Assembly (NCBI GenBank): GCA_002839825.1
Contig: PGYU01000001.1
Location: 462,698-526,697, forward strand
Source of the DNA: Ignavibacteriae bacterium HGW-Ignavibacteriae-1
Lineage (GTDB): Bacteria; Bacteroidota; Ignavibacteria; Kapaibacteriales; UBA2268
Reading direction: 5' to 3'
DNA length: 64,000 bases
Shown: in pieces, positions 6,019 to 64,000 of the stretch
Layout: each line of letters begins with the position of its first letter
Numbering within the stretch: position 1 is the first letter of the stretch
Program-made: the position numbers and the translations under genes
Notes under the pieces: model-generated
Told to the model about the DNA's origin: nothing
Database searches by the model: none
The model's input: the letters and a program-made list of their open reading frames with translations, nothing else

Positions 6019-6756
6019 TTATTGATTTGATTGAGCATTAACATTTTCGGATAATGTGTTTGCCACACTGATTTTTGTACCATCCGCAAAGATGATTTCC
6101 GACGGTACCCAAATTCTTCTCATTTGGTCCCATTGCGTGCGCAATGTCATGTCGTTATTATTATTAGGGTCATGAACAAATGGATAAACGATGCGTCTTG
6201 TTTCGCCGGCTTTGATAGGTTGGTTACCCAATACCACAGGAATTTTACCCATAATAAAGTTCTTTACGAGTTGGCGATTTTGAGTATAAATTTGCAAAGC
6301 ACCTTTGAAATCAACAATGTCTTTGTCAGAACGGTTCGTAAATTCAAATACAATCGAATTCAATTCTCTGTTGTTCACTGAATCTGCTTGTGGAGCTAAT
6401 CCAACCAAAAGAAATTTGTGGTTGAGTACCAATTCGGAACGTGTAGCAACATTCGCCAGATTTGCAGCCATCTGATTTCTTTCGTTTTCAATCTCTAATT
6501 CAATAACTTGGGCGAGAGTTTTACCTACGAGCGAATCAACGCTTCTTGATAATAAGGTGGTCATCCCGGTTGATAGATATCTCATTTCATCGGCGGTGAG
6601 AAGTGGGTCTTTTCCCGCTTCGGTGATAATTTGGACCAAATTATCTTTAGTAATTGACTCGTTCAAAAGCGGTGATTTCTTTGCTTTTTGTTCGCATCCG
6701 GTAAAAATTACAAAAGCAATTGCAATGATAGTAAGCAATTTAATTGTAATACGCAT
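6019..6756 (-). CDS. Hypothetical lipoprotein
   Basis: Lipobox MRITIKLLTIIAIAFVIFTGC. No domain I recognise. Confidence 0.6.
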   Translation of the reverse strand: MRITIKLLTIIAIAFVIFTGCEQKAKKSPLLNESITKDNLVQIITEAGKDPLLTADEMRYLSTGMTTLLSRSVDSLVGKTLAQVIELEIENERNQMAANLANVATRSELVLNHKFLLVGLAPQADSVNNRELNSIVFEFTNRSDKDIVDFKGALQIYTQNRQLVKNFIMGKIPVVLGNQPIKAGETRRIVYPFVHDPNNNNDMTLRTQWDQMRRIWVPSEIIFADGTKISVANTLSENVNAQSNQ

Positions 6757-6842
6757 GTTTAGACTCCAAATAGAATTTCAAAAATGTTTTATTAAGGTTA
6801 CAAAAATAACTTATATTTTAGTTAATACAAAAATTCAATTTA

Positions 6843-7754
6843 TTATAGCATTCCAAGCAAGTGACCTTGGATAACTCCGTATCTCAATCCTTTGGCACTT
6901 ACAACGCATTCCGCGATTTTGAATTCTTCAAAAATTGTTCTCAATATCAATGTGCCTGCGAGTATCAGGTTAGCTCTGCCAGGACTTACGAGATGTTTGG
7001 TAGCGATTTCTTCGACAGTTGAGCCATAGTACAAATCAAAAAGCTCATTGAGTTTTTCAATTGTCAAATTGTAGTTGTCAATTTCTCTCACTTTATAATC
7101 ATGTATCCCACAAGCTGTAGCTGCGAGAGTCGTTGCAGTTCCGGCAACTGCAAAGATTTGATCATATTTTGGCATTTCGGCTTTCACATCATCCAGCAAC
7201 TCGCGAATGTACCGGACAGTTTCATCAATTTGCGATTGAGTAGGAGGGTGGCTCATATTGAAAAATCTCTCGAAAATCCTGACTGCACCTATATCAAGGC
7301 TTTGTTTAAACAAGATTTGTTTGTCTTTGCCGATGATAATTTCTGTACTGCCGCCGCCAATGTCAATTACCAGAGATGTTTTAGGGGAATTGACAGTGCC
7401 GATAAAGCTCAAAGTTGCTTCTTTTTTGCCATCAATGATGAACACCGGGTGCTGGAGAATAGATTCGAAGGACATTTTTACTTGAGCACTATTCTTAGCG
7501 TCACGCATAGCGCTCGTTGCTACTGTTATGATGCTCTGTACATCAAACTTTTTGCAAATGTTGACACATTTTTGAAGAATTTTCTCGGCTCTTAGGATTG
7601 CCTGTTCGTTTATCAATCCGGTTTTGTCGGTATCTTCACCAAGTCTGGCGATAGCATACTCCTCGTGAAGAATTTTTATCTCATTATTTAGAGATATTTG
7701 AGCAACAAGCATCAAAATAGTGTTTGTCCCAATATCAATCGAAGCTAATCTCAT
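6843..7754 (-). CDS. ppx: Ppx/GppA family phosphatase (exopolyphosphatase / pppGpp phosphohydrolase)
   Basis: N-terminal MRLASIDIGTNT, a DIGGGSTE motif and the actin-like ASKH fold signature. The probable start is the MRLAS methionine (ORF track start 7787). Confidence 0.8.
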   Translation of the reverse strand: MRLASIDIGTNTILMLVAQISLNNEIKILHEEYAIARLGEDTDKTGLINEQAILRAEKILQKCVNICKKFDVQSIITVATSAMRDAKNSAQVKMSFESILQHPVFIIDGKKEATLSFIGTVNSPKTSLVIDIGGGSTEIIIGKDKQILFKQSLDIGAVRIFERFFNMSHPPTQSQIDETVRYIRELLDDVKAEMPKYDQIFAVAGTATTLAATACGIHDYKVREIDNYNLTIEKLNELFDLYYGSTVEEIATKHLVSPGRANLILAGTLILRTIFEEFKIAECVVSAKGLRYGVIQGHLLGML

Positions 7755-7756
7755 AC

Positions 7757-8605
7757 TTATTCCACTATAAATTGAAAAGCTACCCACTCATCGTCATACA
7801 TTGTTTCATTCAGCTTGAAACCTGCTTTGGTAGCACTTTTGACAACGGTTTCTTCGTCATATTTCAAAATCCCGGAAACTAGTAAAATTCCTTTCCTTGC
7901 CTTGAGCGAATCATACATTTTGCTGAATGAATCTATGACTAAATGAAGGAACAAATTTGCAAAAATCCCGTCAGATTCGGGCAATTCAACTTTGTAAATA
8001 TCTGCATTTTCTACTTTGATGTTAGACACGCCATTCAAGGCGATGTTTTCATTTATATTCAATGTTGACCATTCGTCATTATCGAATGCGAAAACTTCCT
8101 TGGCGCCAAGTTTGGAGGCTAAAATAGCCAATAATCCCGTGCCGGAACCAGCATCAATCCAAAAACTATCAGCTTTGACATATTTCAATGCTAATTGGGA
8201 CATCATCTTAGTAGTAGAATGGTGACCTGTGCCGAATGACATTTGTGGATTTATGATGATTTTCATGTCGGCAGCAACTTCATTTGCTTTCCATTCGGGA
8301 GTGATAACGCAATTCTCATCAATCCAAACAGGCTCAATCGAATTCTCCCAATCTTCGTTCCAGTTCTTTTCCTCGATTTCGATTGTTTCAACTAATTTTG
8401 CTTTCGGATACACACCTTTTATAATTTCAAACAGACTGTTGAATACTTCCTCATCGAATTTGTGTGAATGAAAAGTAATTTTGTAAACATCATGGACTTG
8501 TTCAACACCCACAAAGTCCATATCGCAAATCAATCCTAAAGCTAAATCGTGAAGCTCTTCGGGAAACTCAAATACTACTATTTTATAAGTGTTATTCAAT
8601 TTCAA
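7757..8605 (-). CDS. prmA: Ribosomal protein L11 methyltransferase
   Basis: FGTGHHSTTKMM and the SAM-binding motif IDAGSGTGLLAI. Length is 282 aa. Confidence 0.85.
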   Translation of the reverse strand: MKLNNTYKIVVFEFPEELHDLALGLICDMDFVGVEQVHDVYKITFHSHKFDEEVFNSLFEIIKGVYPKAKLVETIEIEEKNWNEDWENSIEPVWIDENCVITPEWKANEVAADMKIIINPQMSFGTGHHSTTKMMSQLALKYVKADSFWIDAGSGTGLLAILASKLGAKEVFAFDNDEWSTLNINENIALNGVSNIKVENADIYKVELPESDGIFANLFLHLVIDSFSKMYDSLKARKGILLVSGILKYDEETVVKSATKAGFKLNETMYDDEWVAFQFIVE

Positions 8606-8677
8606 TCCAATAATTATGTGACATATACTTTTATATTATAGTATCTTGTACAATTCAAAAATATGAATTAAAATAAC

Positions 8678-9214
8678 ATGAGTGACATAAAAGTTACTGA
8701 CGAGTTGAATCACAAGCTAAATAAAATAAAGCTTTTAGTGATGGATGTTGATGGCACACTTACAGATGGTACAATGTATTATTCCAAAACCGGGGAAGAA
8801 CTCAAAAAATTTTCAACACGCGATGGAATGGGAATTACACTACTACGAAAAAATGATATTGAGAGTGCAATCATAACTAGCGAATATTCTCAAATATCGG
8901 AACAAAGAGCTATCAAATTACGTATAGAACATGTGGTACTTGGTAGTCGGAACAAAACCGAATCACTTATTGAATTGTCAAAAAAATTGAATTTAGAATT
9001 GAATGAAATAGCCTTCATAGGCGATGATATAAATGACGAACACGTAATGAACATCGCGGGAGTTTCGGCTTGTCCGGCAGATGCAACTAAATCAATTCAA
9101 CAAATTGCCGATTACATTTGCTCATCAAATGGCGGCAATGGGGCAGTCAGAGAATTCATAGAAGCTATTTTAAAATCTCAAAATAAAAGTATTTGTTTAA
9201 CAGAAAATTGGTAG
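8678..9214 (+). CDS. kdsC: 3-deoxy-D-manno-octulosonate 8-phosphate phosphatase (HAD IIIA)
   Basis: LLVMDVDGTLTDG, GDDINDEHVM, and a 178 aa size typical of KdsC. Confidence 0.8.
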   Translation: MSDIKVTDELNHKLNKIKLLVMDVDGTLTDGTMYYSKTGEELKKFSTRDGMGITLLRKNDIESAIITSEYSQISEQRAIKLRIEHVVLGSRNKTESLIELSKKLNLELNEIAFIGDDINDEHVMNIAGVSACPADATKSIQQIADYICSSNGGNGAVREFIEAILKSQNKSICLTENW

Positions 9215-9222
9215 GAGGATTT

Positions 9223-9648
9223 ATGTCAGGTAGTAATGATTCAGGAAATTACACACGCGGGTTTATAATCGGCGCAATTGTCGGTGGAGTATCAGGAGCA
9301 ATAACGGCTCTTTTGTTAGCACCAAAATCAGGAGTAGAACTTAGAAAAGATATTTCTGACCAATCGGTAGAATATTACACGAAAGCTGCAGATTATTTCA
9401 AGACTATGGAAGGTAAGGTAGGAGATGGTATCAACGAAGGCAAATTAAAAGCCCAAGGTATCATGGATAATGCTCGACACAAAGCAGGAGATATTCTGCA
9501 CGACGCTGAAAGTGTAATTAAAGATGCACGTTTGAAAGCATCTAATGCAAAAGATCAAATTCAGGACAGAATTGAAAATATTCGCGATGCTGCTAAAGCC
9601 GGTACAGATGCATTCAAATCTGAAATGAAATCAATCGATAACAAATAA
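9223..9648 (+). CDS. YtxH-domain protein (general stress family)
   Basis: GFIIGAIVGGVSGAITALLLAPKSGVELRKD matches the YtxH pattern. The ATG at 9223 is preceded by AGGAGG; the ORF track starts at 9193. Confidence 0.7.
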   Translation: MSGSNDSGNYTRGFIIGAIVGGVSGAITALLLAPKSGVELRKDISDQSVEYYTKAADYFKTMEGKVGDGINEGKLKAQGIMDNARHKAGDILHDAESVIKDARLKASNAKDQIQDRIENIRDAAKAGTDAFKSEMKSIDNK

Positions 9649-9662
9649 AAAATGGGATTAAC

Positions 9663-10142
9663 ATGGATGACGCGCTTAAAATCACAGGTTTGGTAGCTAT
9701 TGTTTCATTCATAATTTTGTCTTGGGTCGGAATCGTTGCCGCAATCAAAGTCGGTAAACTCTTTGAAAATATATCACTTACGTTTGATACCTTAAAGGGT
9801 GATGTTGCTGATGTAAAAGCGAAGGCACTCATATTATTCGAAGATTTACATAGCTTAAAAATAAGATTAGAACGTACTTTAGACGAATTTTCCGAACTTA
9901 AAGGGAATATCGCTGTTTCGCTTGAAAGTGTGACTGATTTGAGCGAACAGATTACAAAATCTGTCGAAAACATTGAGAGACGCACTGATAAATTTATCAG
10001 TATTATCGAACCAATTGAAAAAGTTGTTGGTAAATTTGTTGATTCTATTGCGCCGACATTAAATTACACAGGTGGCGTTGTAAGCGCTTTTTCCAAAGCT
10101 ATTTCTGCATTCTCAGGCAAGTTATTAAAGGGCAAAGGTTAA
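9663..10142 (+). CDS. DUF948-family membrane/coiled-coil protein
   Basis: An N-terminal transmembrane helix followed by coiled-coil. The family typically pairs with YtxH. Confidence 0.6.
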   Translation: MDDALKITGLVAIVSFIILSWVGIVAAIKVGKLFENISLTFDTLKGDVADVKAKALILFEDLHSLKIRLERTLDEFSELKGNIAVSLESVTDLSEQITKSVENIERRTDKFISIIEPIEKVVGKFVDSIAPTLNYTGGVVSAFSKAISAFSGKLLKGKG

Positions 10143-11035: not shown

Positions 11036-12322
11036 TTACAGATTACATTCAGTATATTGGTTGTTGTTTATCGAATAGATTGGTTTGCCTTTCAAAACTA
11101 ATTTATCAAATGGTGTATTTTGAGATTTCGATTTAAAAAGTTGTTTATTAACAGTCCATTCTAATTCAGGATTGAAAATTGTAAGATTTGCCCTTTCGCC
11201 TACTTTGATTTCAATTGATTCCAAATTCAAAATCTTTCGTGGATTAACAGACATTTTTTCGATAATTTGGTTCAAATTCAAATGTCCTGCATGATAAAGA
11301 TACGTCAGCGAGAGTCCCAATGAGGTCTCTAAGCCAATGATACCATTTGGAGAATTTTCCAATTCTACATGTTTTTCGTGCAAACTATGTGGTGCATGGT
11401 CAGTAGCTATGCAATCAATCGTGCCATCTTTCAATCCTTCGATAATTGCATCCACGTCTGATTTAGCTCTCAGTGGCGGATTCATTTTATAATTTGAATC
11501 ATATGAAGTTAGATAATCATCTGTGAGAATAAAATGGTGCGGAGCAGCTTCAGATGTTACTCTTTGCCCGTCAGCCTTGGCTTTTCTGATTAATTGGACT
11601 GTCCCGGCAGTGCTTATATGCTGCGGGTGATACCGACGGTTGCCTGTATAAAGTGCAATCATCAAATCACGAGCGACAATCATTTCTTCGGCGATACTTG
11701 GGTAACCTTTCAATCCAAGTTTATATGCTAAAGCACCGTCATTCATGGCAAAATTCTTTGTCAAAGTGTGCTCTTCGCAATGCTGAGACAAGAGATAATC
11801 AAATGGTGCGGCATATTCAAAAGCGAGTTTCATAACATCCGCACGGCTTACGGCTGATCCATCATCAGTAAAAAGCACGACCCCCGCATCGCTTAATTCA
11901 ATCATCGGTGTAATATGGTCGCCTTTGCGTTCTTTCGTTATCGCTGCAGATATATACACATCTGTTAGTAAGCCCTTGGACTTGCTTTTGATATACTCCA
12001 CAACAGTTACGTCGTCAATTGCCGGCTCGGTATTCGGCATACAAACTACGCCTGTAAACCCACCATTAGCTGCGGAATCTGTTCCGGTTTGGATTGTTTC
12101 TTTATGCTCTTGCCCGGGTTGTCTGAAATGCACGTGCATATCAAATAATCCCGGTGAGGCTACTAAATCTTTCGAATCAACAATTTGGGTTTGCGAATCT
12201 GCGTTTATCGCAGAACTTGTCATTTCTGCTATGAATCCATCTTTTACTAAGATATTAAGCCGAGTATCAAGTTTTTGACTCGGTGATATTACTCTGATGT
12301 CATTGAATAATAAATTCATCAA
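11036..12322 (-). CDS. pyrC: Dihydroorotase
   Basis: DMHVHFRQPG metal-binding motif and an amidohydrolase fold. Length is 428 aa. Confidence 0.85.
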   Translation of the reverse strand: MMNLLFNDIRVISPSQKLDTRLNILVKDGFIAEMTSSAINADSQTQIVDSKDLVASPGLFDMHVHFRQPGQEHKETIQTGTDSAANGGFTGVVCMPNTEPAIDDVTVVEYIKSKSKGLLTDVYISAAITKERKGDHITPMIELSDAGVVLFTDDGSAVSRADVMKLAFEYAAPFDYLLSQHCEEHTLTKNFAMNDGALAYKLGLKGYPSIAEEMIVARDLMIALYTGNRRYHPQHISTAGTVQLIRKAKADGQRVTSEAAPHHFILTDDYLTSYDSNYKMNPPLRAKSDVDAIIEGLKDGTIDCIATDHAPHSLHEKHVELENSPNGIIGLETSLGLSLTYLYHAGHLNLNQIIEKMSVNPRKILNLESIEIKVGERANLTIFNPELEWTVNKQLFKSKSQNTPFDKLVLKGKPIYSINNNQYTECNL

Positions 12323-55606: not shown

Positions 55607-58600
55607 ATGAAAAAGCTCTTAGTTTTAATAGTGGGTCTAATAATAATACATCACTATGCTTTATGCCAAAAAGAAGCAAGTAACTGGAACTTTGGCAGAA
55701 ATGCAGCAATGACATTCAATACCCCTGATAAAGAACCTGTTTTTGTAAATGGGTCACAACTAAATTCATGGGAAGGGTGCGCAACAATATCAGATTCAGA
55801 AGGTAATTTACTATTCTATACCAACGGAGTCACTGTTTGGAATAAAAACAATGCCATTATGGATGGTGGTACAGGATTGCTTGGTGATAACTCAGCAACT
55901 CAATCTTCAGTCGCTTTTCAACATCCTACTCAGGCAAAAATGTATTATATTTTCACTGTCGGTTCAGTAGAGTCAAATACAAAAGGTTTTAATTATTCAT
56001 TTGTTGACATGAACGCAAATGGAGGATTAGGTAAAGTTATTACTAAAAATGTCAAAATTCATGATAAACCAATTGAAAGAATAGCTGTTATTCCACATGC
56101 GAACAAAAAAGCTTATTGGGTAATTGTCCATATCACAGGGACTACTGAATATTTAGCATACAAAGTTGATGAGTTTGGTGTAGCTACAGTACCGATTGTA
56201 AGTAATGGTACTCTTAAAAGTACTAAATTGACCGGACATACGCTAAAGGCATCTTTAGATGGTACAAGAATAGCCTCCACACATTCTTTTGCAAGCGTTA
56301 TCGAATTGTTTGATTTTGATGCTTTTTCAGGTAAAATGACTTTAACTCATAATCTATTGCACCCAAGTTTTACATGGCCATATGGAGTAGAATTTTCTCC
56401 GGACGGGAAACTTTTATATGCGTCTTTGTTTTTCACATGTCGTTTAGTCCAATTTGACGTTACTCTAAAAACAGCGGAACAAATATTAAATAGCATGGTA
56501 GTTTTAGGTGAAAACAAAAGCGCAACATTCTATTTTGGTACTATACAACTTGGTATAAATGGAAAAATTTATGTTGCACAAGACGACAATACGTATTTAG
56601 GGGTAATTAGTAAACCAAACCAAAAGGGAGAAGCTTGTGATTTTGTAGAGTATGGCTTTCGATTGTTATCCGGTTCTAGAAGTGGATTAGGATTACCATC
56701 TTTTGTACAGGCTTTTTTTGCTCCCAAAGAATATTGTGAACCCAAGGGAGATGACTTAATCATAAATGGAGATTTTGAAGTAAGTCCCTCCAATTTTACA
56801 TCTACATTAAGTTTGGTAGATGCTAATGCACAATTTCAAACACCTTCAACATATATTATAACAAAAGTGAATCCAATCAATACTAATGATCCATGCTCAC
56901 TCTATGGTACTATTAATAAATTCATGTTTGTACATACCAAAACTGGATTGAATGAAATAATGAAATTTGATTTGAAAGTTGAAAAGAACATAGAATATAT
57001 TCTCTCATTTGATTTTGTACCTATTGATGACAAAGTGTTTTCAAACTTAAGAATAGATATTGATGGTGAAGAAATTGCATCAGATTTTATTCATTCTGAT
57101 GGTTTGTGTCAATTAATAAATTATAAATTTACATGGAATTCTAAAGAAAAGGAAGATGTTGAATTAACATTCAAGATGATTTCATCATCCCCTGAAAAAT
57201 TTGCACTTGATAACATTTCATTTAGAAGTTGTGAATGTTCTAAAAGAGAATTTGAATCTTCAGAGCATCAAATCTGTTATGGTAAAAGTGTAAAATTAGA
57301 GGGAAATGACAATCAAAAATATATCCATAAATGGGAGCCCAATTTTTGGATTGATAATCCAAATTCACCTACACCTACAGTTTCTCCAACAAAAAGTACG
57401 ATTTACCTTTTAAAATTGACGGATAGAATAACTGGATGTGAATATTTTGATACAGTAAAGGTTGAAGTAATCCCGGCGGTTGAAATTGAAATTTTGGGAG
57501 ATAATCTTATCTGTGTGGGTGATAGTACAGAACTGTCAATTGAAGGAAATTTAAATTCTATCATTTGGAGTACGGGCGATACAACACTGAGTATTATAGT
57601 CTCAACTCCGGGTACCTATGAAGTATCAGGTATTGATTCAAATGGTTGTGAACATAAAGGACAAATTCAAGTTAAATTAATTGAATCTCCGGGTTTAGCA
57701 ATTCTCGGACCTGTATTGGTTTGTTTCGAAGAAGAATATGAATTAGAGGTTAATTTAGATGCTTTCGGATATTTATGGTCAACCGGTGATACCACTAAAA
57801 AGATAAAAAGAGTAGGTGCTGGATTTTTCACTGTCCTTGTAACAATTGAAGGTGGTTGTATTGTCGAATTATCTATTGATGTTGGTTTGAAGGAGGATGG
57901 AGAGGTTAGAATAAGAGGTCCTTTCGAGGTTTGTATTGAGGAAAATTTTGAACTTGAAGCCCTAATTTTGGCTGATAAATACATTTGGTCAACTGGTGAC
58001 TCAACAAAAATCATAAAACATAAAGGTCCCGGAGTTGTTAACTTAGAAGTCGTTACTAAAGACGGTTGTAGAAGTATAGGTTCATACGAAATTAAGTTAA
58101 AACCTGATGGTGCTCTAAATATAATTGGAAAAACCGAAGCATGTTTGAACGAGGATGTAACTTTGATGACTGATTTTGAAGGTGTAAAATATAATTGGTC
58201 AACAGGCGATACCACCAAACAGATTATTCACCGAGGTCCGGGAACTATAAGTGTCGAAGTAATAGATTCAAACGGATGCCGAAGTATTGGTTCGTTTGTA
58301 ATTGAACTTATCCCTGATGGAATTGTAGAAATTATCGGACCAAAGAGAGTTTGTATATATGAAGAGTTCGAACTGATTGCTGATATTGATGGAGAAAAGT
58401 ACATTTGGTCAACCGGTGATACCACCAAAAAGATAAAACACATTGGTCCAGGTAAAATAACTGTGGAAGTCATAACATCTGAAGGATGTGTAAGTAGAGG
58501 AGGAATTGAGATAGAATTGATTCCTGATGCCGATATAGATATTTTTGGTCCAACTTCAATTTGTGAAGGCGAAAATTCTATAATTTCCATATCCGGTAAT

Positions 58601-59746
58601 TTTCAAAAAATCACATGGAGCACCGGTGATACTACCGAAATTGTCACGATTACAAAAGGTGGTACTTACAACGTACAAGCTATTGATATTTACGGTTGTA
58701 GATGGATTGGTTCGATAAAAATAACTGAAATTCCAAAAATTCATTTTGAGGAAATGAAAATTGATTTAGGTGAATTATGTATTTTTGAAACCAATCAGTC
58801 TAATTATGAAATTGTAAATTCAAACGATTTTGCTTTTACAATCAGTAAAATAATGCTTCAAAATTCATCGAGCGGACAAATTGAACTTCAATATAATCAG
58901 TCATTGCCTTTGGTTTTAAACAATCTCCAAACTCTTGAATTCTCGTTGAAGTTCTCACCTTTAGTTTCGGCTGGTAAAATTTATGATACAATAACAGTTT
59001 TTATTTCCGAACCATGTTATACAGAATTCCGAATACCAATAACAGGAACTGTAATCAAAACGGAAACAAAGGTTTGGATAGCCGATACAACTGTTGCTGC
59101 CGGCGAATACATATGTATTCCAATTCATGCAACTATGTTTTGTGAAGAGTTCATTACAGGTGAATTCAAATATAGATTAGTGTGTGACCTGAGCAAATCT
59201 TTCTTCGAACCTGATTCAGTAGCTTCTGGGACAATGGTTGTTGATGACAAGAATCTCAGATATTATATAATTGAAATAGAGGACATCGCCATACTTGAAG
59301 AAAGTAACAATATTGTTAATTATATCTGTGGAACCGTATTATCTCCTGATTCAACAAAGTTTTCCGTTAATATAAACGATTTTGAATGGACTGGTTTTGA
59401 AACAGAAACTAAGATGGACAATGGCTTATTCGATGTGGAATATTGTGTTTATACAATCCGACAGCTAATTTATATCAAACTTACTTCAATTACTTTAAAG
59501 CCAAATGTAACGGAAGGTGCTTTTACTGCAAACGTTGTTAGTTCCGAAGTTGGAAATTTCAATATTATCATTACTAATTCTATTGGAAACGAAGTTTATA
59601 GACGTTCTTGGGTCAGAAATTCCAAGTCTGAACCTGAAGAAAATGAAATGTTGATTGACTTATCCGAATATCCATCCGGCATTTACAACGTTATTATGAT
59701 TTCGCCGTGGAGTACTAAGACGGAGAAAGTGATGTTAGTAAAATAG
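55607..59746 (+). CDS. Giant T9SS cargo protein (paralog B): same architecture with about 7-8 Ig-like Cys repeats
   Basis: The N-terminal ~380 aa and C-terminal ~240 aa are highly similar to paralog A. The tandem repeats have motif G..C.....L......Y.WSTGDTT..I....PG.Y.V.V....GC. The T9SS CTD is ...GIYNVIMISPWSTKTEKVMLVK. Confidence 0.7.
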   Translation: MKKLLVLIVGLIIIHHYALCQKEASNWNFGRNAAMTFNTPDKEPVFVNGSQLNSWEGCATISDSEGNLLFYTNGVTVWNKNNAIMDGGTGLLGDNSATQSSVAFQHPTQAKMYYIFTVGSVESNTKGFNYSFVDMNANGGLGKVITKNVKIHDKPIERIAVIPHANKKAYWVIVHITGTTEYLAYKVDEFGVATVPIVSNGTLKSTKLTGHTLKASLDGTRIASTHSFASVIELFDFDAFSGKMTLTHNLLHPSFTWPYGVEFSPDGKLLYASLFFTCRLVQFDVTLKTAEQILNSMVVLGENKSATFYFGTIQLGINGKIYVAQDDNTYLGVISKPNQKGEACDFVEYGFRLLSGSRSGLGLPSFVQAFFAPKEYCEPKGDDLIINGDFEVSPSNFTSTLSLVDANAQFQTPSTYIITKVNPINTNDPCSLYGTINKFMFVHTKTGLNEIMKFDLKVEKNIEYILSFDFVPIDDKVFSNLRIDIDGEEIASDFIHSDGLCQLINYKFTWNSKEKEDVELTFKMISSSPEKFALDNISFRSCECSKREFESSEHQICYGKSVKLEGNDNQKYIHKWEPNFWIDNPNSPTPTVSPTKSTIYLLKLTDRITGCEYFDTVKVEVIPAVEIEILGDNLICVGDSTELSIEGNLNSIIWSTGDTTLSIIVSTPGTYEVSGIDSNGCEHKGQIQVKLIESPGLAILGPVLVCFEEEYELEVNLDAFGYLWSTGDTTKKIKRVGAGFFTVLVTIEGGCIVELSIDVGLKEDGEVRIRGPFEVCIEENFELEALILADKYIWSTGDSTKIIKHKGPGVVNLEVVTKDGCRSIGSYEIKLKPDGALNIIGKTEACLNEDVTLMTDFEGVKYNWSTGDTTKQIIHRGPGTISVEVIDSNGCRSIGSFVIELIPDGIVEIIGPKRVCIYEEFELIADIDGEKYIWSTGDTTKKIKHIGPGKITVEVITSEGCVSRGGIEIELIPDADIDIFGPTSICEGENSIISISGNFQKITWSTGDTTEIVTITKGGTYNVQAIDIYGCRWIGSIKITEIPKIHFEEMKIDLGELCIFETNQSNYEIVNSNDFAFTISKIMLQNSSSGQIELQYNQSLPLVLNNLQTLEFSLKFSPLVSAGKIYDTITVFISEPCYTEFRIPITGTVIKTETKVWIADTTVAAGEYICIPIHATMFCEEFITGEFKYRLVCDLSKSFFEPDSVASGTMVVDDKNLRYYIIEIEDIAILEESNNIVNYICGTVLSPDSTKFSVNINDFEWTGFETETKMDNGLFDVEYCVYTIRQLIYIKLTSITLKPNVTEGAFTANVVSSEVGNFNIIITNSIGNEVYRRSWVRNSKSEPEENEMLIDLSEYPSGIYNVIMISPWSTKTEKVMLVK

Positions 59747-59773
59747 TGGGTTTTGAGCATAAAATTAAGAGAA

Positions 59774-59807
59774 AGATTGATTGATAGTCAATCTTTTTCT
59801 TTTTTTT
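59774..59807 (+). terminator. Rho-independent terminator after paralog B
   Basis: agattga-ttgatag-tcaatct followed by a T-rich run. Confidence 0.6.
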
Positions 59808-59847: not shown

Positions 59848-61095
59848 TTGAATTATGTTTCAATGGGGATGTGCAAAATGATTGAATTTCGGGATTATAA
59901 GGTTGCCGGACGCGACGTTTTGGCTGTGGATGGCAGAATTGACGGCGTTACTTCGTCGGAGCTCGCAAATAAATTGTCGCAAATTATTGCTTCCGGCGAA
60001 CGCATTATTGTGATGGATTGCGATGGTGTGAATTTTGTGAGTTCAGCGGGGTTACGGGTTTTGCTTGTAAGCCAGCAAAAACTCGCAGGAGCGGGCGGTA
60101 TGATGGTGATGTATCGTATGAACGAGAGCATCTTTAAAATCTTCAAGATGAGCGGCTTTGATAGGGTATTTAAGATTGTGGCGAACGAGGCAGAGCTTCT
60201 CCACTTGATTTCGACACAAAAAGTTGAATCCGAACTTATCAGCTCTACTCGTGACGGAATTAAGTTTGAGTATCAGCAATTTGACACTCCGAGCGGAAAG
60301 TTCGCAAAATTCACAAATAACGATAATATCCGAAATTCCGCGATTACTTCGGCTGATGTTAGGTCTTTCTCGCCGAATGAAATTCAATATGGTGTTGGCA
60401 ATGCTGCATTGGGCGATAATTTTGAAGATTATAAAAATTATTTCGGCGAGGCACTGGTCCTCCAAAACTCACTTTTCTACTATCCAGCGGTGAATCGCCC
60501 GGCGGTTGATTTTATGCAATATGACCCTGATGCTGATGATATTAAATATAACTTTGCTGACGGATTCTCGTTTTCTGGTGATTTTTACGCAAAAGTTTCT
60601 TTCGATGCAACTACTGATGGTGCTGATTTTGAAGAAATTTTAGCCGGAGTTAGCGAACTTTCAGGTTTGAAATCATTTGGTGTCGTATTTTTGGCTGAAA
60701 GCAAAGGTATTCGTGGAATAAGCATCAAAAAAGTCCCCACAAACGAGAACAAACCTGCAAATTCGCAAGATATTTTCCATCCTGATAATTTTTCAAATTG
60801 GTTCAATTACCCTATCGAAGCTGAAGATGTGAATTTGATTGCAGCAGGTGTAGGAATTTATGCTGATAAGGGAAGTAAATTTTACACTGAAAATTTGTCG
60901 GCTTTCCCGGCAGAGCTTAATTATCACTTGCATGTCGGAATTTTTGACAGAGATGTTTTGAGTTATAAGATTCACTTTTTCGACGATGAACTCAAAAAAG
61001 TGCGACAAGAATTGAATCCGCTCCGACTTAAACATTTGTTGGGCAAATCGCGTTTCAGCTTTGGATGTTTGGGTATAATTAAGTTGGAGGCATAA
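59848..61095 (+). CDS. STAS-domain (anti-sigma-antagonist fold) protein with an uncharacterised ~300 aa C-terminal domain
   Basis: The N-terminal ~110 aa (MIEFRDYKVAGRDVLAVDGRIDGVTSSELANKL...VMDCDGVNFVSSAGLRVLLV...) matches STAS/SpoIIAA. The remainder is unrecognised. Its stop is 1 bp before the ABC permease start. An alternative start is 59878. Confidence 0.6.
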   Translation: MNYVSMGMCKMIEFRDYKVAGRDVLAVDGRIDGVTSSELANKLSQIIASGERIIVMDCDGVNFVSSAGLRVLLVSQQKLAGAGGMMVMYRMNESIFKIFKMSGFDRVFKIVANEAELLHLISTQKVESELISSTRDGIKFEYQQFDTPSGKFAKFTNNDNIRNSAITSADVRSFSPNEIQYGVGNAALGDNFEDYKNYFGEALVLQNSLFYYPAVNRPAVDFMQYDPDADDIKYNFADGFSFSGDFYAKVSFDATTDGADFEEILAGVSELSGLKSFGVVFLAESKGIRGISIKKVPTNENKPANSQDIFHPDNFSNWFNYPIEAEDVNLIAAGVGIYADKGSKFYTENLSAFPAELNYHLHVGIFDRDVLSYKIHFFDDELKKVRQELNPLRLKHLLGKSRFSFGCLGIIKLEA

Positions 61096-61096
61096 A

Positions 61097-63931
61097 ATGG
61101 AACTATGGATAGGTGCGATTAATTTAGGCTTGATTTACGGATTTATGACAATTGGGATTTACCTGACGTATAAGTTTCTCGATTTCCCTGATATAACCGT
61201 TGACGGTAGTTTTACTTTTGGGGCTGCAATTACATCGGTGTTGATTGTAGGAGGAACAAATCCGGTGCTAGCATTGATAATAGCTTCATTCGGAGGTATG
61301 TTTGCAGGTTCGGTAACGGGGATAATTCATACAAAAATGCGAGTGAACGGGCTTCTTTCGGGTATTTTAGTGATGATTGGGCTTTATTCAATCAATTTGC
61401 ATATCATGGGACGAAGCAACGTACCTTTGTTGAACAGCCCGAGCTTTACAAATATTTTGGACAGCTTCAATCCGGGAATTGGTATTGAATTTTGGTTAGC
61501 AATATGTATGATAGTCATTGTTGGGCTCTTTTCGATAAAAGTGGCATTATTTTTCAAATCGGATTTGGGAATGTCATTGATAGCAACGGGAAATAACCCT
61601 ATTATGAGTTCAGCGTTGGGCGTGAATGTTGATTCGATGAAAATATTCGGGATTGCACTATCAAACGGGATGATTGCATTTTCGGGTGGTATGATAGCCC
61701 AATATCAGGGTTTTGCAGATATTGGGATGGGCATCGGTATGATAATTAATGGGCTGGCAGCTGTGATTATTGGCGAATCAATTTTCAAATCAAGGTCGAT
61801 TTTTGTGAAAATCGCAAGCGCGGTGGTTGGTTCGATTATTTTCAGGTTGATGATTGCTCTCGCCTTATATGCCGGAATGAATCCGATTGATTTGAAATTG
61901 CTGACTTCACTCTTTGTACTTGGAACATTATATATCGGGCTTAAAATTTCGAAAAATGAAAAAAATCGCAAAAAGCCATTGAGCATAAAAGTAAATAAAA
62001 AAGTTGCTTATGCAGTGGTAGTGTCTTTGCTTGGAATAGCGACTATATATGGTTTGAACAAATTGATTGATTCGCAAGGCGGAAGTTCCGATGGTAAGCA
62101 TGTAGTCGGAATTGTCCAAATTGACAGCAACCCGATTTTGGATATGACTCGAGAGGGCTTTTTGGAAGAAATGAAAAAGCTCGGATATGAGGATGGTCAA
62201 AATATTGAATTTAAAATTCAAGATGCAAATGGCGATTTGGCAACACTAAATTCGATTATTGATAATTTTGTTATGAGCGAAGTGTGTTTGATTGTAACCA
62301 TTTCCACTCCTGCTACACAAGTGGCAATCACCAAAGTGAAGGACATTCCGGTAGTGTTTGCTACTGTTGCGAATCCATTCATAATTAATGCCGGAACGTC
62401 GGATTCAAACCATTTACCAAACGTCACAGGCGTTTATGGATGGGCTCCGATGGATAAAACTCTTGAATTAGTTCGAGAAATCTTCCCTCGTGAATTGAAA
62501 ATCGGCACAATTTGGAACGCCGGACAGGCAAACTCGGAATTTAATGTTGATAATTTGAAACATGAAATATCTAAATATCCTGATATGAGCTTTGAAGGTG
62601 CAACTATCACTTCTACTTCTGAAGTTCGCGAAGCTGCCACATCTTTAGTGCAGAAAAAAATTGATGCTTTTGTTCTGGTACCCGAAAATACTGTTTTTGC
62701 GGCATTTGACGCAGTCGCCAAAGTTGCGGAGATGAACAAAATCCCGATTTTCATAAATGACGTTGAAAGGCTTAACGATGGTGCATTAGCTGCTTTGGGA
62801 TATGATTACAAATCAAGTGGTCAAGACGCGGCTCACATTGTTAATCGTGTGCTAAATGGTGAAAAACCGGCTGATATCCCATTCAGCCGATATACTAAAT
62901 TAACTTTCGGATTGAATAATGACGTTGCCGAAAAATTAAAAATATCTTTCTCAGATGAATTGAAATTCAAAGCGAATAAATTTGTCGGAAAAAAAGATGT
63001 CAAAAAAATGATGAAAATCGGAATGGTTCAATTCGCAATGGAACCGAATGTTGAACTTGCAAAAGAAGGTTTCATCAAAGCTTTGAACAGCAACGGATAT
63101 TTCGATGGCGAAAATGTTGAAATCATTTATCGAAATGCGAACGCAGATTTTTCGATGATAAATTCGATTATGCAGGATTTGATTTCGCGTGATGTTGATA
63201 TCATCGTGCCCTTGTCAACGCCGGTTGTCCAAGCGGCTGTCCAAATGGTTGGCAATAGAGCCAAACCGATTGTGGTATTTACTTACATTTACGACCCGTA
63301 TAAAATCGGAGCTGCAAAATCTCCAACTGACCACCTGCCGAATTTCACCGGATATGCGTGCTTCCCTCCTATCGAACGGATGTTGGATTTGATTAAGGAG
63401 ATGTTGCCCAACCGCACGAAATTAGGATTGGTTTGGAATTCGTCCGAAGCAAATTCTGAATCAGTCGTTAGTAAGATTAGGCAATATGCTCCTAAGATAG
63501 GTCTTGAGGTGATTGAGTCAACAGTGACCAATCCATCTGAAGTCTTGGATGCATCAAATGCGTTGGTGAATAAAGGTGCTCAAATATTTATGAATGGCGG
63601 CGACAACACTTTGAACGTGAGTTATGACAGTTTTGTCAAAGTGGCTGAAGCTAAGAACATTCCGGTATTTTCGGTTGACGCCGAATTTATCACAAATAAA
63701 ACTATTGCGATTTTAGGACCAAATTATCACCGAACAGGTTTTGACGGTGGCACTTATGCAGTCAGAGTTTTGAATGGCGAAAGTCCTGCAAAAATGCCAA
63801 TAATGCAAACGACAATGACGAGTTTCTTCTTGAATTTGGATGTTGCTGAAAAATTGGGAATTAAGCTGAGCGATGGTTTGATAAATCGAGCCGAAATGGT
63901 CATAAAAGATTCGAAGGAGATAAAAAAATGA
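61097..63931 (+). CDS. ABC transporter permease (COG4120/BPD_transp_2-like) fused to two tandem periplasmic substrate-binding domains (PF04392/COG2984 ABC_sub_bind)
   Basis: About 290 aa with ~8 TM helices. Then two ~300 aa segments each starting with a ...IG.VQ....p.ld...eGF...l...Gy.dG.N.e...... pattern typical of PF04392. Confidence 0.65.
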   Translation: MELWIGAINLGLIYGFMTIGIYLTYKFLDFPDITVDGSFTFGAAITSVLIVGGTNPVLALIIASFGGMFAGSVTGIIHTKMRVNGLLSGILVMIGLYSINLHIMGRSNVPLLNSPSFTNILDSFNPGIGIEFWLAICMIVIVGLFSIKVALFFKSDLGMSLIATGNNPIMSSALGVNVDSMKIFGIALSNGMIAFSGGMIAQYQGFADIGMGIGMIINGLAAVIIGESIFKSRSIFVKIASAVVGSIIFRLMIALALYAGMNPIDLKLLTSLFVLGTLYIGLKISKNEKNRKKPLSIKVNKKVAYAVVVSLLGIATIYGLNKLIDSQGGSSDGKHVVGIVQIDSNPILDMTREGFLEEMKKLGYEDGQNIEFKIQDANGDLATLNSIIDNFVMSEVCLIVTISTPATQVAITKVKDIPVVFATVANPFIINAGTSDSNHLPNVTGVYGWAPMDKTLELVREIFPRELKIGTIWNAGQANSEFNVDNLKHEISKYPDMSFEGATITSTSEVREAATSLVQKKIDAFVLVPENTVFAAFDAVAKVAEMNKIPIFINDVERLNDGALAALGYDYKSSGQDAAHIVNRVLNGEKPADIPFSRYTKLTFGLNNDVAEKLKISFSDELKFKANKFVGKKDVKKMMKIGMVQFAMEPNVELAKEGFIKALNSNGYFDGENVEIIYRNANADFSMINSIMQDLISRDVDIIVPLSTPVVQAAVQMVGNRAKPIVVFTYIYDPYKIGAAKSPTDHLPNFTGYACFPPIERMLDLIKEMLPNRTKLGLVWNSSEANSESVVSKIRQYAPKIGLEVIESTVTNPSEVLDASNALVNKGAQIFMNGGDNTLNVSYDSFVKVAEAKNIPVFSVDAEFITNKTIAILGPNYHRTGFDGGTYAVRVLNGESPAKMPIMQTTMTSFFLNLDVAEKLGIKLSDGLINRAEMVIKDSKEIKK

Positions 63932-64000
63932 TACAAATCAAGGATTTTCATAAAGTTTTCAATCGTGGTACTATAAACGAAGTTTATGCACTGAAAAATA
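63928..64000 (+). CDS. ABC transporter ATP-binding protein (5' fragment; continues beyond the window)
   Basis: The ATG overlaps the preceding TGA. MIQIKDFHKVFNRGTINEVYALKN is a typical ABC ATPase N-terminus. Confidence 0.55.
   Translation, partial: MIQIKDFHKVFNRGTINEVYALKN

Follow-up and report, generated by a model that had tools for sequence, protein, structure and literature searches.

Why should a gene for a protein of the anti-sigma-factor-antagonist type stand directly in front of the genes that encode an ATP-binding cassette (ABC) importer? The question is raised by the 3' end of a 64,000-nucleotide stretch of the Ignavibacteriae bacterium HGW-Ignavibacteriae-1 genome (contig PGYU01000001.1, positions 462,698 to 526,697 of the forward strand; this whole stretch is the window in what follows). 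Three genes follow one another there on the same strand, the first encoding a STAS-domain protein which, together with its relatives, we call STAS-X, the second a permease fused to two tandem substrate-binding domains (SBDs) of the PF04392 family, and the third the ATPase. This three-gene operon is confirmed as an observation on this stretch. It is a known importer lineage in an undescribed configuration, with tandem PF04392 domains at the C-terminus of a BPD_transp_2 permease, an obligatory subunit that joins STAS to a domain of predicted alpha-acetolactate decarboxylase (ALDC) fold, and frequent linkage to partner-switching genes. We favour the reading that it encodes a homodimeric importer of aromatic-amino-acid-type compounds, of the TrpXYZ/COG4120-COG2984 lineage, with a dedicated and phospho-regulated STAS subunit, and we consider this probable, if not strongly so. 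The three genes are:

59878..61095, plus strand: STAS-X gene (405 amino acids), from the open reading frame (ORF) table, with the start set by homologues and the public gene call
61097..63931, plus strand: gene for the permease with two PF04392 domains (944 amino acids), from the ORF table
63928..64000, plus strand: 5' end of the ABC ATPase gene (24 codons), recognised by the ATGA overlap with the permease stop; 269 amino acids in the source contig

The first two genes are spaced by one base, no stop falls inside the 944-amino-acid frame, and the ATG of the ATPase at 63928 overlaps the permease stop as ATGA, its ORF being truncated by the end of the window. These junctions bear out the coupled operon of three genes that a preliminary description, drawn from the letters alone, had proposed, and the downstream ATPase that it named proved complete. 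The identical STAS-X protein is encoded on a public contig of 428 kb; there the ATPase is intact at 269 amino acids and is followed by a convergent gene, and the operon therefore consists of exactly three genes. For the first gene, the mechanical ORF runs from a TTG at 59848 to 61095 on the plus strand. This TTG was rejected as the start in favour of the ATG at 59878, since all homologues and the public call begin MxE; the product thus starts MIEF and has 405 rather than 415 residues.

The link between STAS-X and the transporter is best judged from other genomes. One genome per species was scanned with an alignment of 10 STAS-X sequences, which gave 343 confirmed loci; 80 were fetched, 72 of them full-length, and after setting aside 2 cut by a contig end, 70 informative loci remained. 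The permease lies directly downstream of the STAS-X gene in 67 of these 70, followed by the ATPase, and the gap between STAS-X and permease is 4 nucleotides or less in 54 of the 67. STAS-X itself, a soluble protein assigned to the cytoplasm, belongs to a family of fixed length, about 405 amino acids. The reciprocal test agreed, as three out of three fused permeases from other phyla have a gene for a STAS protein of 397-410 amino acids upstream. Likewise, when a profile of the C-terminal domain of STAS-X alone was scored against 1.84 billion representatives, it returned 620 clusters (at 50% identity), nearly all of 400-430 amino acids, in which the domain spans 120-400; the best 150 of the 620 contained no second architecture. 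A distant subfamily (18-25% identity) has a different order, namely a free multi-SBD polyprotein (941-1357 amino acids), STAS-X, an unfused permease of about 310 amino acids and the ATPase. That it keeps STAS-X despite its unfused SBDs ties STAS-X to the transporter clade and not to the fusion as such. The free polyprotein, with three or four tandem PF04392 domains, is seen in Verrucomicrobia-type relatives (L074 5879-9952; L089 4732-7557), and at L085 an orphan STAS-X gene overlaps an ORF of 339-349 amino acids without a Pfam match.

STAS-X is thus the dedicated partner of this transporter clade, almost without exception, and the earlier idea of a functional tie between the STAS protein and the transporter is supported by the synteny and its reciprocal check. 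An independent anti-sigma antagonist that happens to share a promoter with an ordinary amino-acid importer might look similar in a single genome, as STAS proteins are common and a few STAS-X genes do occur without a transporter. Such a coincidence is already disfavoured, and we regard it as highly improbable: STAS-X and permease stay together at 67 of the 70 informative loci, which come from many phyla, their linkage outlasts the rearrangement of the SBDs, and the architecture of the STAS-X family is fixed.

If STAS-X is a transporter subunit, what does its STAS domain suggest about its function?

59878..60216, plus strand: STAS domain of the SpoIIAA/RsbV type (residues 1-113), with the codon of S56 at 60043-60045

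Pfam places STAS (PF01740) at residues 24-116 (E=2.5e-14, 53.4 bits against a cut-off of 22.6), so that the STAS domain earlier read into the product of the 59848 frame is secure, and the NCBIfam model for the anti-sigma-factor antagonist superfamily, TIGR00377, is also above its cut-off (61 against 53.45 bits). S56 is invariant in 25 diverse STAS-X members down to 18% identity. It aligns with the serine of DSSGL in SpoIIAA (1th8/1auz), which is the phospho-serine at the SpoIIAA S58 position; at the equivalent position the 1tid variant has Ala and 1th8 has Ser. The closest precedent for a STAS protein in an ABC transporter operon is MlaB, which likewise has Ser/Thr at the phospho-site position. 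MlaB binds the nucleotide-binding domain (NBD) of its transporter, being needed for NBD stability and assembly, and it contacts the helical subdomain of MlaF via the face bearing Thr52, the equivalent of S56 (PMC7367683). The two differ in that MlaB is a minimal STAS protein of 97 amino acids without an extra domain and serves a lipid transporter, whereas here a full-length STAS and a 285-amino-acid domain with a putative metal site accompany an importer dependent on substrate-binding proteins (SBPs).

Genes for a kinase and a phosphatase that might act on such a phospho-site lie close to the operon in a number of relatives. In the Aminicenantes locus L083 (=L001), four genes at 6176-9941 immediately precede STAS-X and share its strand, encoding a 110-amino-acid STAS protein, a 135-amino-acid HATPase_c_2 kinase, an NMT1 protein and a dCache-HAMP-SpoIIE (PP2C) phosphatase. 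Using tblastn with the L083 genes, we found this module, whole or in part, at a distance of up to 10 kb in 18 of the 72 related loci, in varying orientations, and across phyla the identity to the L083 module is 44-69% for the phosphatase (full-length matches) and 49-64% for NMT1. In Opitutaceae (L074) the kinase and the small STAS gene come directly after the ATPase. The four-gene module is also present in L003, L013, L015, L017, L029, L033, L041, L064 and L065. Throughout, the SBP-like NMT1 is paired with the phosphatase, which suggests for it the role of a periplasmic binding protein that supplies the dCache sensor. Histidine kinases occur nearby in L083 and L085. STAS-X therefore has in common with the SpoIIAA/RsbV modules the STAS fold, the phospho-serine and, near 18 of 72 relatives, a kinase, a small STAS protein and a SpoIIE-family phosphatase; it departs from them in its extra domain, its tie to a transporter, the lack of a visible sigma-factor output and the lack of a kinase or phosphatase in the window. 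The partner switching or phosphorylation proposed earlier is accordingly supported in part, by the invariant S56 and the module in the relatives, and left without a kinase or phosphatase in the window itself. For the source organism we infer phospho-control from its relatives only.

The same genes could be read in the opposite direction, with the multi-SBD transporter chiefly as an extracellular sensor whose state STAS-X relays to an RsbW-like kinase or anti-sigma factor, the output being gene regulation and not nutrition. A STAS domain of the anti-sigma-antagonist type, with a TIGR00377 score above the cut-off, would fit such a transceptor, as would the small STAS, kinase and PP2C genes that repeatedly adjoin the operon and the many SBDs with diverged specificity residues, which resemble a sensor array. 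For the loci with gene tables, however, the called genes beside the operon include neither a sigma factor nor any other transcription factor, the kinase is not nearby in three quarters of loci, and the ATPase and permease are intact and of ordinary type. A transceptor would also leave the invariant metal-site domain unexplained, and we find it quite doubtful.

This second domain of STAS-X has the following position and invariant residues.

60238..61092, plus strand: C-terminal domain of predicted ALDC/PTD012-like fold (residues 121-405)
Plus strand, codons of invariant residues: E191 at 60448-60450, D211 at 60508-60510, H350 at 60925-60927, H352 at 60931-60933 and H386 at 61033-61035

Pfam finds nothing in the remaining 290 or so residues of the first gene product, and nothing meaningful at E<=10 for 16 members of the family. 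An AlphaFold2 model of STAS-X built on a 30-sequence alignment (pLDDT 89.7, pTM 0.82) has two domains joined at residues 114-117, and the modelled C-terminal domain matches ALDC, PTD012 and PPC/DUF296-type proteins (3htn, 3hwu, 2p6y, 2dt4, 2hx0); Foldseek concurs, with 4bt2 and 1xcr at E about 8e-7. By fold comparison alone, then, the domain appears to be of the ALDC/PTD012 type, and what had been described as an unknown domain of about 300 amino acids has, in the model, a recognisable fold with a conserved His triad. Ten of its residues are invariant in 25 members down to 18% identity (G174, G190, E191, D211, F242, G326, H350, H352, H386 and G396). In the active centre of ALDC an HxH pair and a third His hold the zinc, and Glu residues are contributed by the N-terminal half and by the C-terminal tail (PMC9090609), while PTD012 (human C11orf54) is, in its depositors' words, a novel zinc-containing fold. 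The pattern of a Glu in the N-terminal half, HxH and a third His is common to ALDC (PF03306), PTD012 and the domain studied here, and by analogy the invariant His, Glu and Asp residues may form a single metal site. The domain differs from both proteins in having no detectable sequence similarity to them and another spacing of the third His, and the fold is not known from any earlier fusion to STAS. We regard these 285 residues as a new protein family, absent from Pfam, to which the model allows a structure to be assigned with confidence.

A domain of this kind might be catalytic. STAS-X could be mainly an enzyme, with zinc-dependent decarboxylase or hydrolase activity on the imported compound at the point where it leaves the transporter, and with the STAS domain as no more than a docking or regulatory handle. 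That Glu, Asp and three His are strictly invariant down to 18% identity speaks for such metabolic coupling, the closest folds, ALDC and PTD012, are both zinc proteins and ALDC is an enzyme, and the fixed 1:1 gene pairing with translational coupling suggests stoichiometric co-production. Yet the domain has no sequence similarity to any enzyme family, equivalents of ALDC Arg145 and Thr58 were not identified, the surroundings of the operon show no conservation of further pathway genes, and the fold also occurs in PPC/DUF296-type proteins annotated as putative DNA-binding or hypothetical. We therefore consider a mainly enzymatic STAS-X unlikely, though it deserves to be kept in mind.

Under the preferred reading, STAS-X serves an importer, whose membrane subunit has the following parts.

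61097..61948, plus strand: permease core of the BPD_transp_2/COG4120 type (residues 1-284)
61949..62068, plus strand: Lys/Arg-rich loop, predicted to be cytoplasmic (residues 285-302, 8 K/R), then a putative signal-anchor transmembrane helix (303-324), assigned from hydropathy, charge count and the analogy with OpuABC
62099..62986, plus strand: SBD1, a complete PF04392 domain (residues 335-630), with specificity positions D555/Y571
63014..63928, plus strand: SBD2, a complete PF04392 domain (residues about 640-944), with specificity positions D861/Y877

In the product of the second gene, Pfam recognises BPD_transp_2 at residues 8-274 (E=1.6e-23) and PF04392 in two stretches, above cut-off (373.9 bits, E=6.6e-112). 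SBD1 and SBD2 are 35% identical to each other, and each can be aligned over its full length with three SBPs of solved structure, 6hni, 3lkv and 3lft (E about 1e-43 to 1e-29). The uninterrupted ORF of 944 codons, the Pfam matches and these alignments establish the fusion of a permease to two complete PF04392 domains, as first described. An assembly or frameshift artefact as the source of the fusion was rejected, given the continuous ORF, the deposition of an identical protein and more than 100 independent homologues of like build; the 944-amino-acid protein is 100% identical to a deposited Ignavibacteriae bacterium HGW-Ignavibacteriae-1 protein, with identical copies in several sources. The ATPase and permease are intact and of ordinary type, and against the Protein Data Bank (PDB) the ATPase gave generic NBD matches only.

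Where do the SBDs lie? The loop rich in Lys and Arg and the extra hydrophobic helix before SBD1 fit the positive-inside rule, by hydropathy and charge count, as well as the layout of OpuABC, and a loop resembling a coupling helix, ATGNNPIMSSALGVNV, at about residues 163-178 is in keeping with the cytoplasmic assignments. The hydropathy of the 944-amino-acid protein has no hydrophobic segment between SBD1 and SBD2. Both SBDs are thus predicted to be outside, in the periplasm, after the signal-anchor helix. As there is a single gene each for permease and ATPase, the complex should be a homodimer that bears four SBDs and so would have four binding sites. Among structures, four entries of 164-189 amino acids (6k1w, 8wxm, 8wgk and 5z6v) weakly match one lobe of SBD2, at residues about 122-189 (E about 2e-4). 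They are named 'ABC-type uncharacterized transport system periplasmic component-like' in the PDB and could represent sensor domains, each half an SBP, with a relationship to PF04392.

The fusion is not confined to this organism. A word-indexed search gave 616 proteins at E<=1e-10, and domains were counted in the best 120 of the 616. All of these 120 combine the permease with PF04392, and domain segmentation gave two SBDs per chain in 40, three in 72 and four in 8; single-SBD fusions occur too, in species genomes. With its two SBDs, the protein here therefore belongs to the shorter members of a widespread series whose chains carry 1-4 such domains, and which is represented in Ignavibacteria, Kapabacteria, Aminicenantes, Omnitrophota, Cloacimonadota, KSB1, Thermodesulfobacteriota and others. 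Literature searches on PF04392 fusions, multi-SBD importers, and STAS or partner switching with ABC transporters led only to GlnPQ, OpuA, Mla and free TrpX/CD0873, and found no paper that describes a fusion of a permease with multiple PF04392 domains. The preliminary description agrees with these searches in that a C-terminal double-PF04392 fusion appears undescribed, and needs amending in that such fusions are not rare, two SBDs being present in 40 of the best 120 homologues. A few related operons show possible disruptions, namely a 2.1-kb insertion between STAS-X and permease (L034 9813-11902) and apparent frameshifts that split the permease or an SBD (L068 at 11181-12042, L002 and L070), for which either sequencing errors or pseudogenes are possible explanations.

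Comparison with characterised tethered importers places this architecture more precisely. OpuABC of L. lactis has the same order of transmembrane domain (TMD), signal-anchor helix and C-terminal SBD (PMC2861598), with one SBD only, compared with two here and three or four in relatives. GlnPQ has two tandem SBDs of different specificity and four sites per dimer, as predicted here, with its SBDs N-terminal, unlike those of the present protein. The earlier statement that fused SBDs are N-terminal in both systems accordingly holds for GlnPQ and fails for OpuA, whose C-terminal SBD behind a signal anchor (PMC2861598) is a precedent. The TMD of both OpuA and GlnPQ is BPD_transp_1, whereas here it is BPD_transp_2, and the SBD class differs too, being PF04392 (cluster B) here. 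Regulation differs as well: OpuA is regulated by CBS domains on its ATPase, and here there is a separate STAS protein. By family membership (PF04392, COG4120, COG1101), the relatives are importers of the TrpXYZ/CD0873 type, such as S. suis TrpX, C. difficile CD0873, V. cholerae VC_1101 and S. pneumoniae SP1069. These use a free lipoprotein SBP, one per system, and have no STAS partner (PMC9382623, PMC6816091), in contrast to the two fused SBDs behind the permease here.

These relatives also provide the clue to the substrate. In every solved PF04392 protein the ligand is an aromatic amino acid, namely Tyr, Phe or Trp (PMC10443332; PMC6816091), and the preference among the three is tuned at two positions, which are Glu263/Tyr279 in CD0873, Ala/Tyr in VC_1101 and Ala/Gln in SP1069 (PMC6816091). 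In HMMER alignments, the CD0873 positions correspond to D555/Y571 in SBD1 and D861/Y877 in SBD2. The Tyr is as in Tyr/Phe binders, being kept from CD0873 Tyr279, and the Asp, in place of Glu or Ala, is without a characterised precedent at the specificity position. As both SBDs have Asp/Tyr at the positions that set the Tyr/Phe/Trp preference in solved homologues, our best guess is that the importer takes up an aromatic amino acid or something closely analogous to one. In the 120 listed homologues, SBD1 almost always has Asp/Tyr, and the distal SBD3 and SBD4 have Ala, Ser, Thr or Gly with Tyr, so the domains of one chain differ at the specificity position, as in GlnPQ. The protein does not reach the equivalog cut-off of NCBIfam for TrpX (361.5 bits, summed over two domains, against 390), and in the loci with gene tables no conserved metabolic neighbour genes recur that would hint at the substrate.

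How might these parts work together? By analogy with MlaB on MlaF, the STAS domain would dock on the ATPase and set the activity or assembly of the transporter, and phosphorylation of S56 would toggle this docking. An RsbW-type kinase, together with a sensor PP2C phosphatase, would set the state of S56; the genes of both lie beside the operon in many relatives and would be found elsewhere, if at all, in the organism studied here. The His-triad domain would bind a metal and a small molecule, and would either report the cytoplasmic level of the transported compound, a form of trans-inhibition, or convert the compound on arrival. Trans-inhibition has precedents in MetNI and ModBC. A bolder version would see in STAS-X the first case of partner switching with a direct output on an ABC importer of the SBP-dependent kind: a PP2C phosphatase with a periplasmic sensor and the RsbW-type kinase would set S56 and so gate transport post-translationally, while the His triad would belong to a zinc enzyme that converts the substrate at the cytoplasmic exit, a vectorial, group-translocation-like process fed by up to eight tethered binding domains. 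We think this version rather unlikely.

Several observations weigh against the favoured picture of an aromatic-type importer with a phospho-regulated STAS subunit. The STAS domain is of the full-length SpoIIAA type and not of the minimal MlaB type, which lacks the fifth strand and the final helix, and its partner could thus be a kinase instead of the ATPase. No RsbW-type kinase or PP2C phosphatase was found in the 64-kb window (tblastn, 1e-4), and most related loci have neither within 10 kb, so that phospho-control may be optional, or absent here. Orphan STAS-X genes without an adjoining transporter occur at L006, L028, L057 and L085 (Desulfatirhabdium butyrativorans). As for the C-terminal domain, similarity to ALDC is missing at the sequence level (Pfam at E<=10 for 16 members, and a profile search of the PDB), and the third His comes 34 residues past the HxH pair, compared with 11 in ALDC. 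Finally, with an Asp unseen in characterised homologues and the TrpX cut-off missed, the substrate may be something other than a proteinogenic aromatic amino acid. Taken as a whole, the earlier interpretation is partly supported.

The surroundings of the operon are consistent with an independent unit.

59767..59801, plus strand: terminator-like hairpin (16 bp stem, T-run), 3' of the upstream 1379-amino-acid gene and forming the 5' boundary of the operon

As this hairpin with its T-run terminates the upstream gene, the operon should form its own transcription unit. The upstream neighbour (55607-59746, plus strand) encodes a secreted-looking protein of 1379 amino acids with about 7 tandem repeats of about 70 amino acids, each carrying a 'WSTGDTT' motif and a conserved Cys pair; it has no Pfam match in the precomputed table and is probably a cell-surface or type IX secretion system (T9SS)-type adhesin. 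The 3' boundary is marked by the convergent gene past the end of the window (L081 14926-16998, minus strand), which encodes 690 amino acids without a Pfam match.

To conclude, we describe here an importer clade that is widespread in phyla of anaerobic sediments and digesters, including Ignavibacteriota, Aminicenantes, KSB1, Omnitrophota, Cloacimonadota, Thermodesulfobacteriota and Verrucomicrobiota. To our knowledge, post-translational control of bacterial ABC importers is limited to a few cases (MetNI, ModBC, MalK-EIIA and OpuA-CBS, with MlaB for a lipid transporter). The obligatory separate STAS subunit, with its phospho-site and putative metal-site domain, makes it directly testable how partner-switching modules act on non-transcriptional targets. 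The fusion extends covalently tethered SBDs to a second permease superfamily, BPD_transp_2, and the relatives with three or four SBDs per chain, hence six or eight per dimer, offer a natural test of the models of SBD competition developed for GlnPQ.

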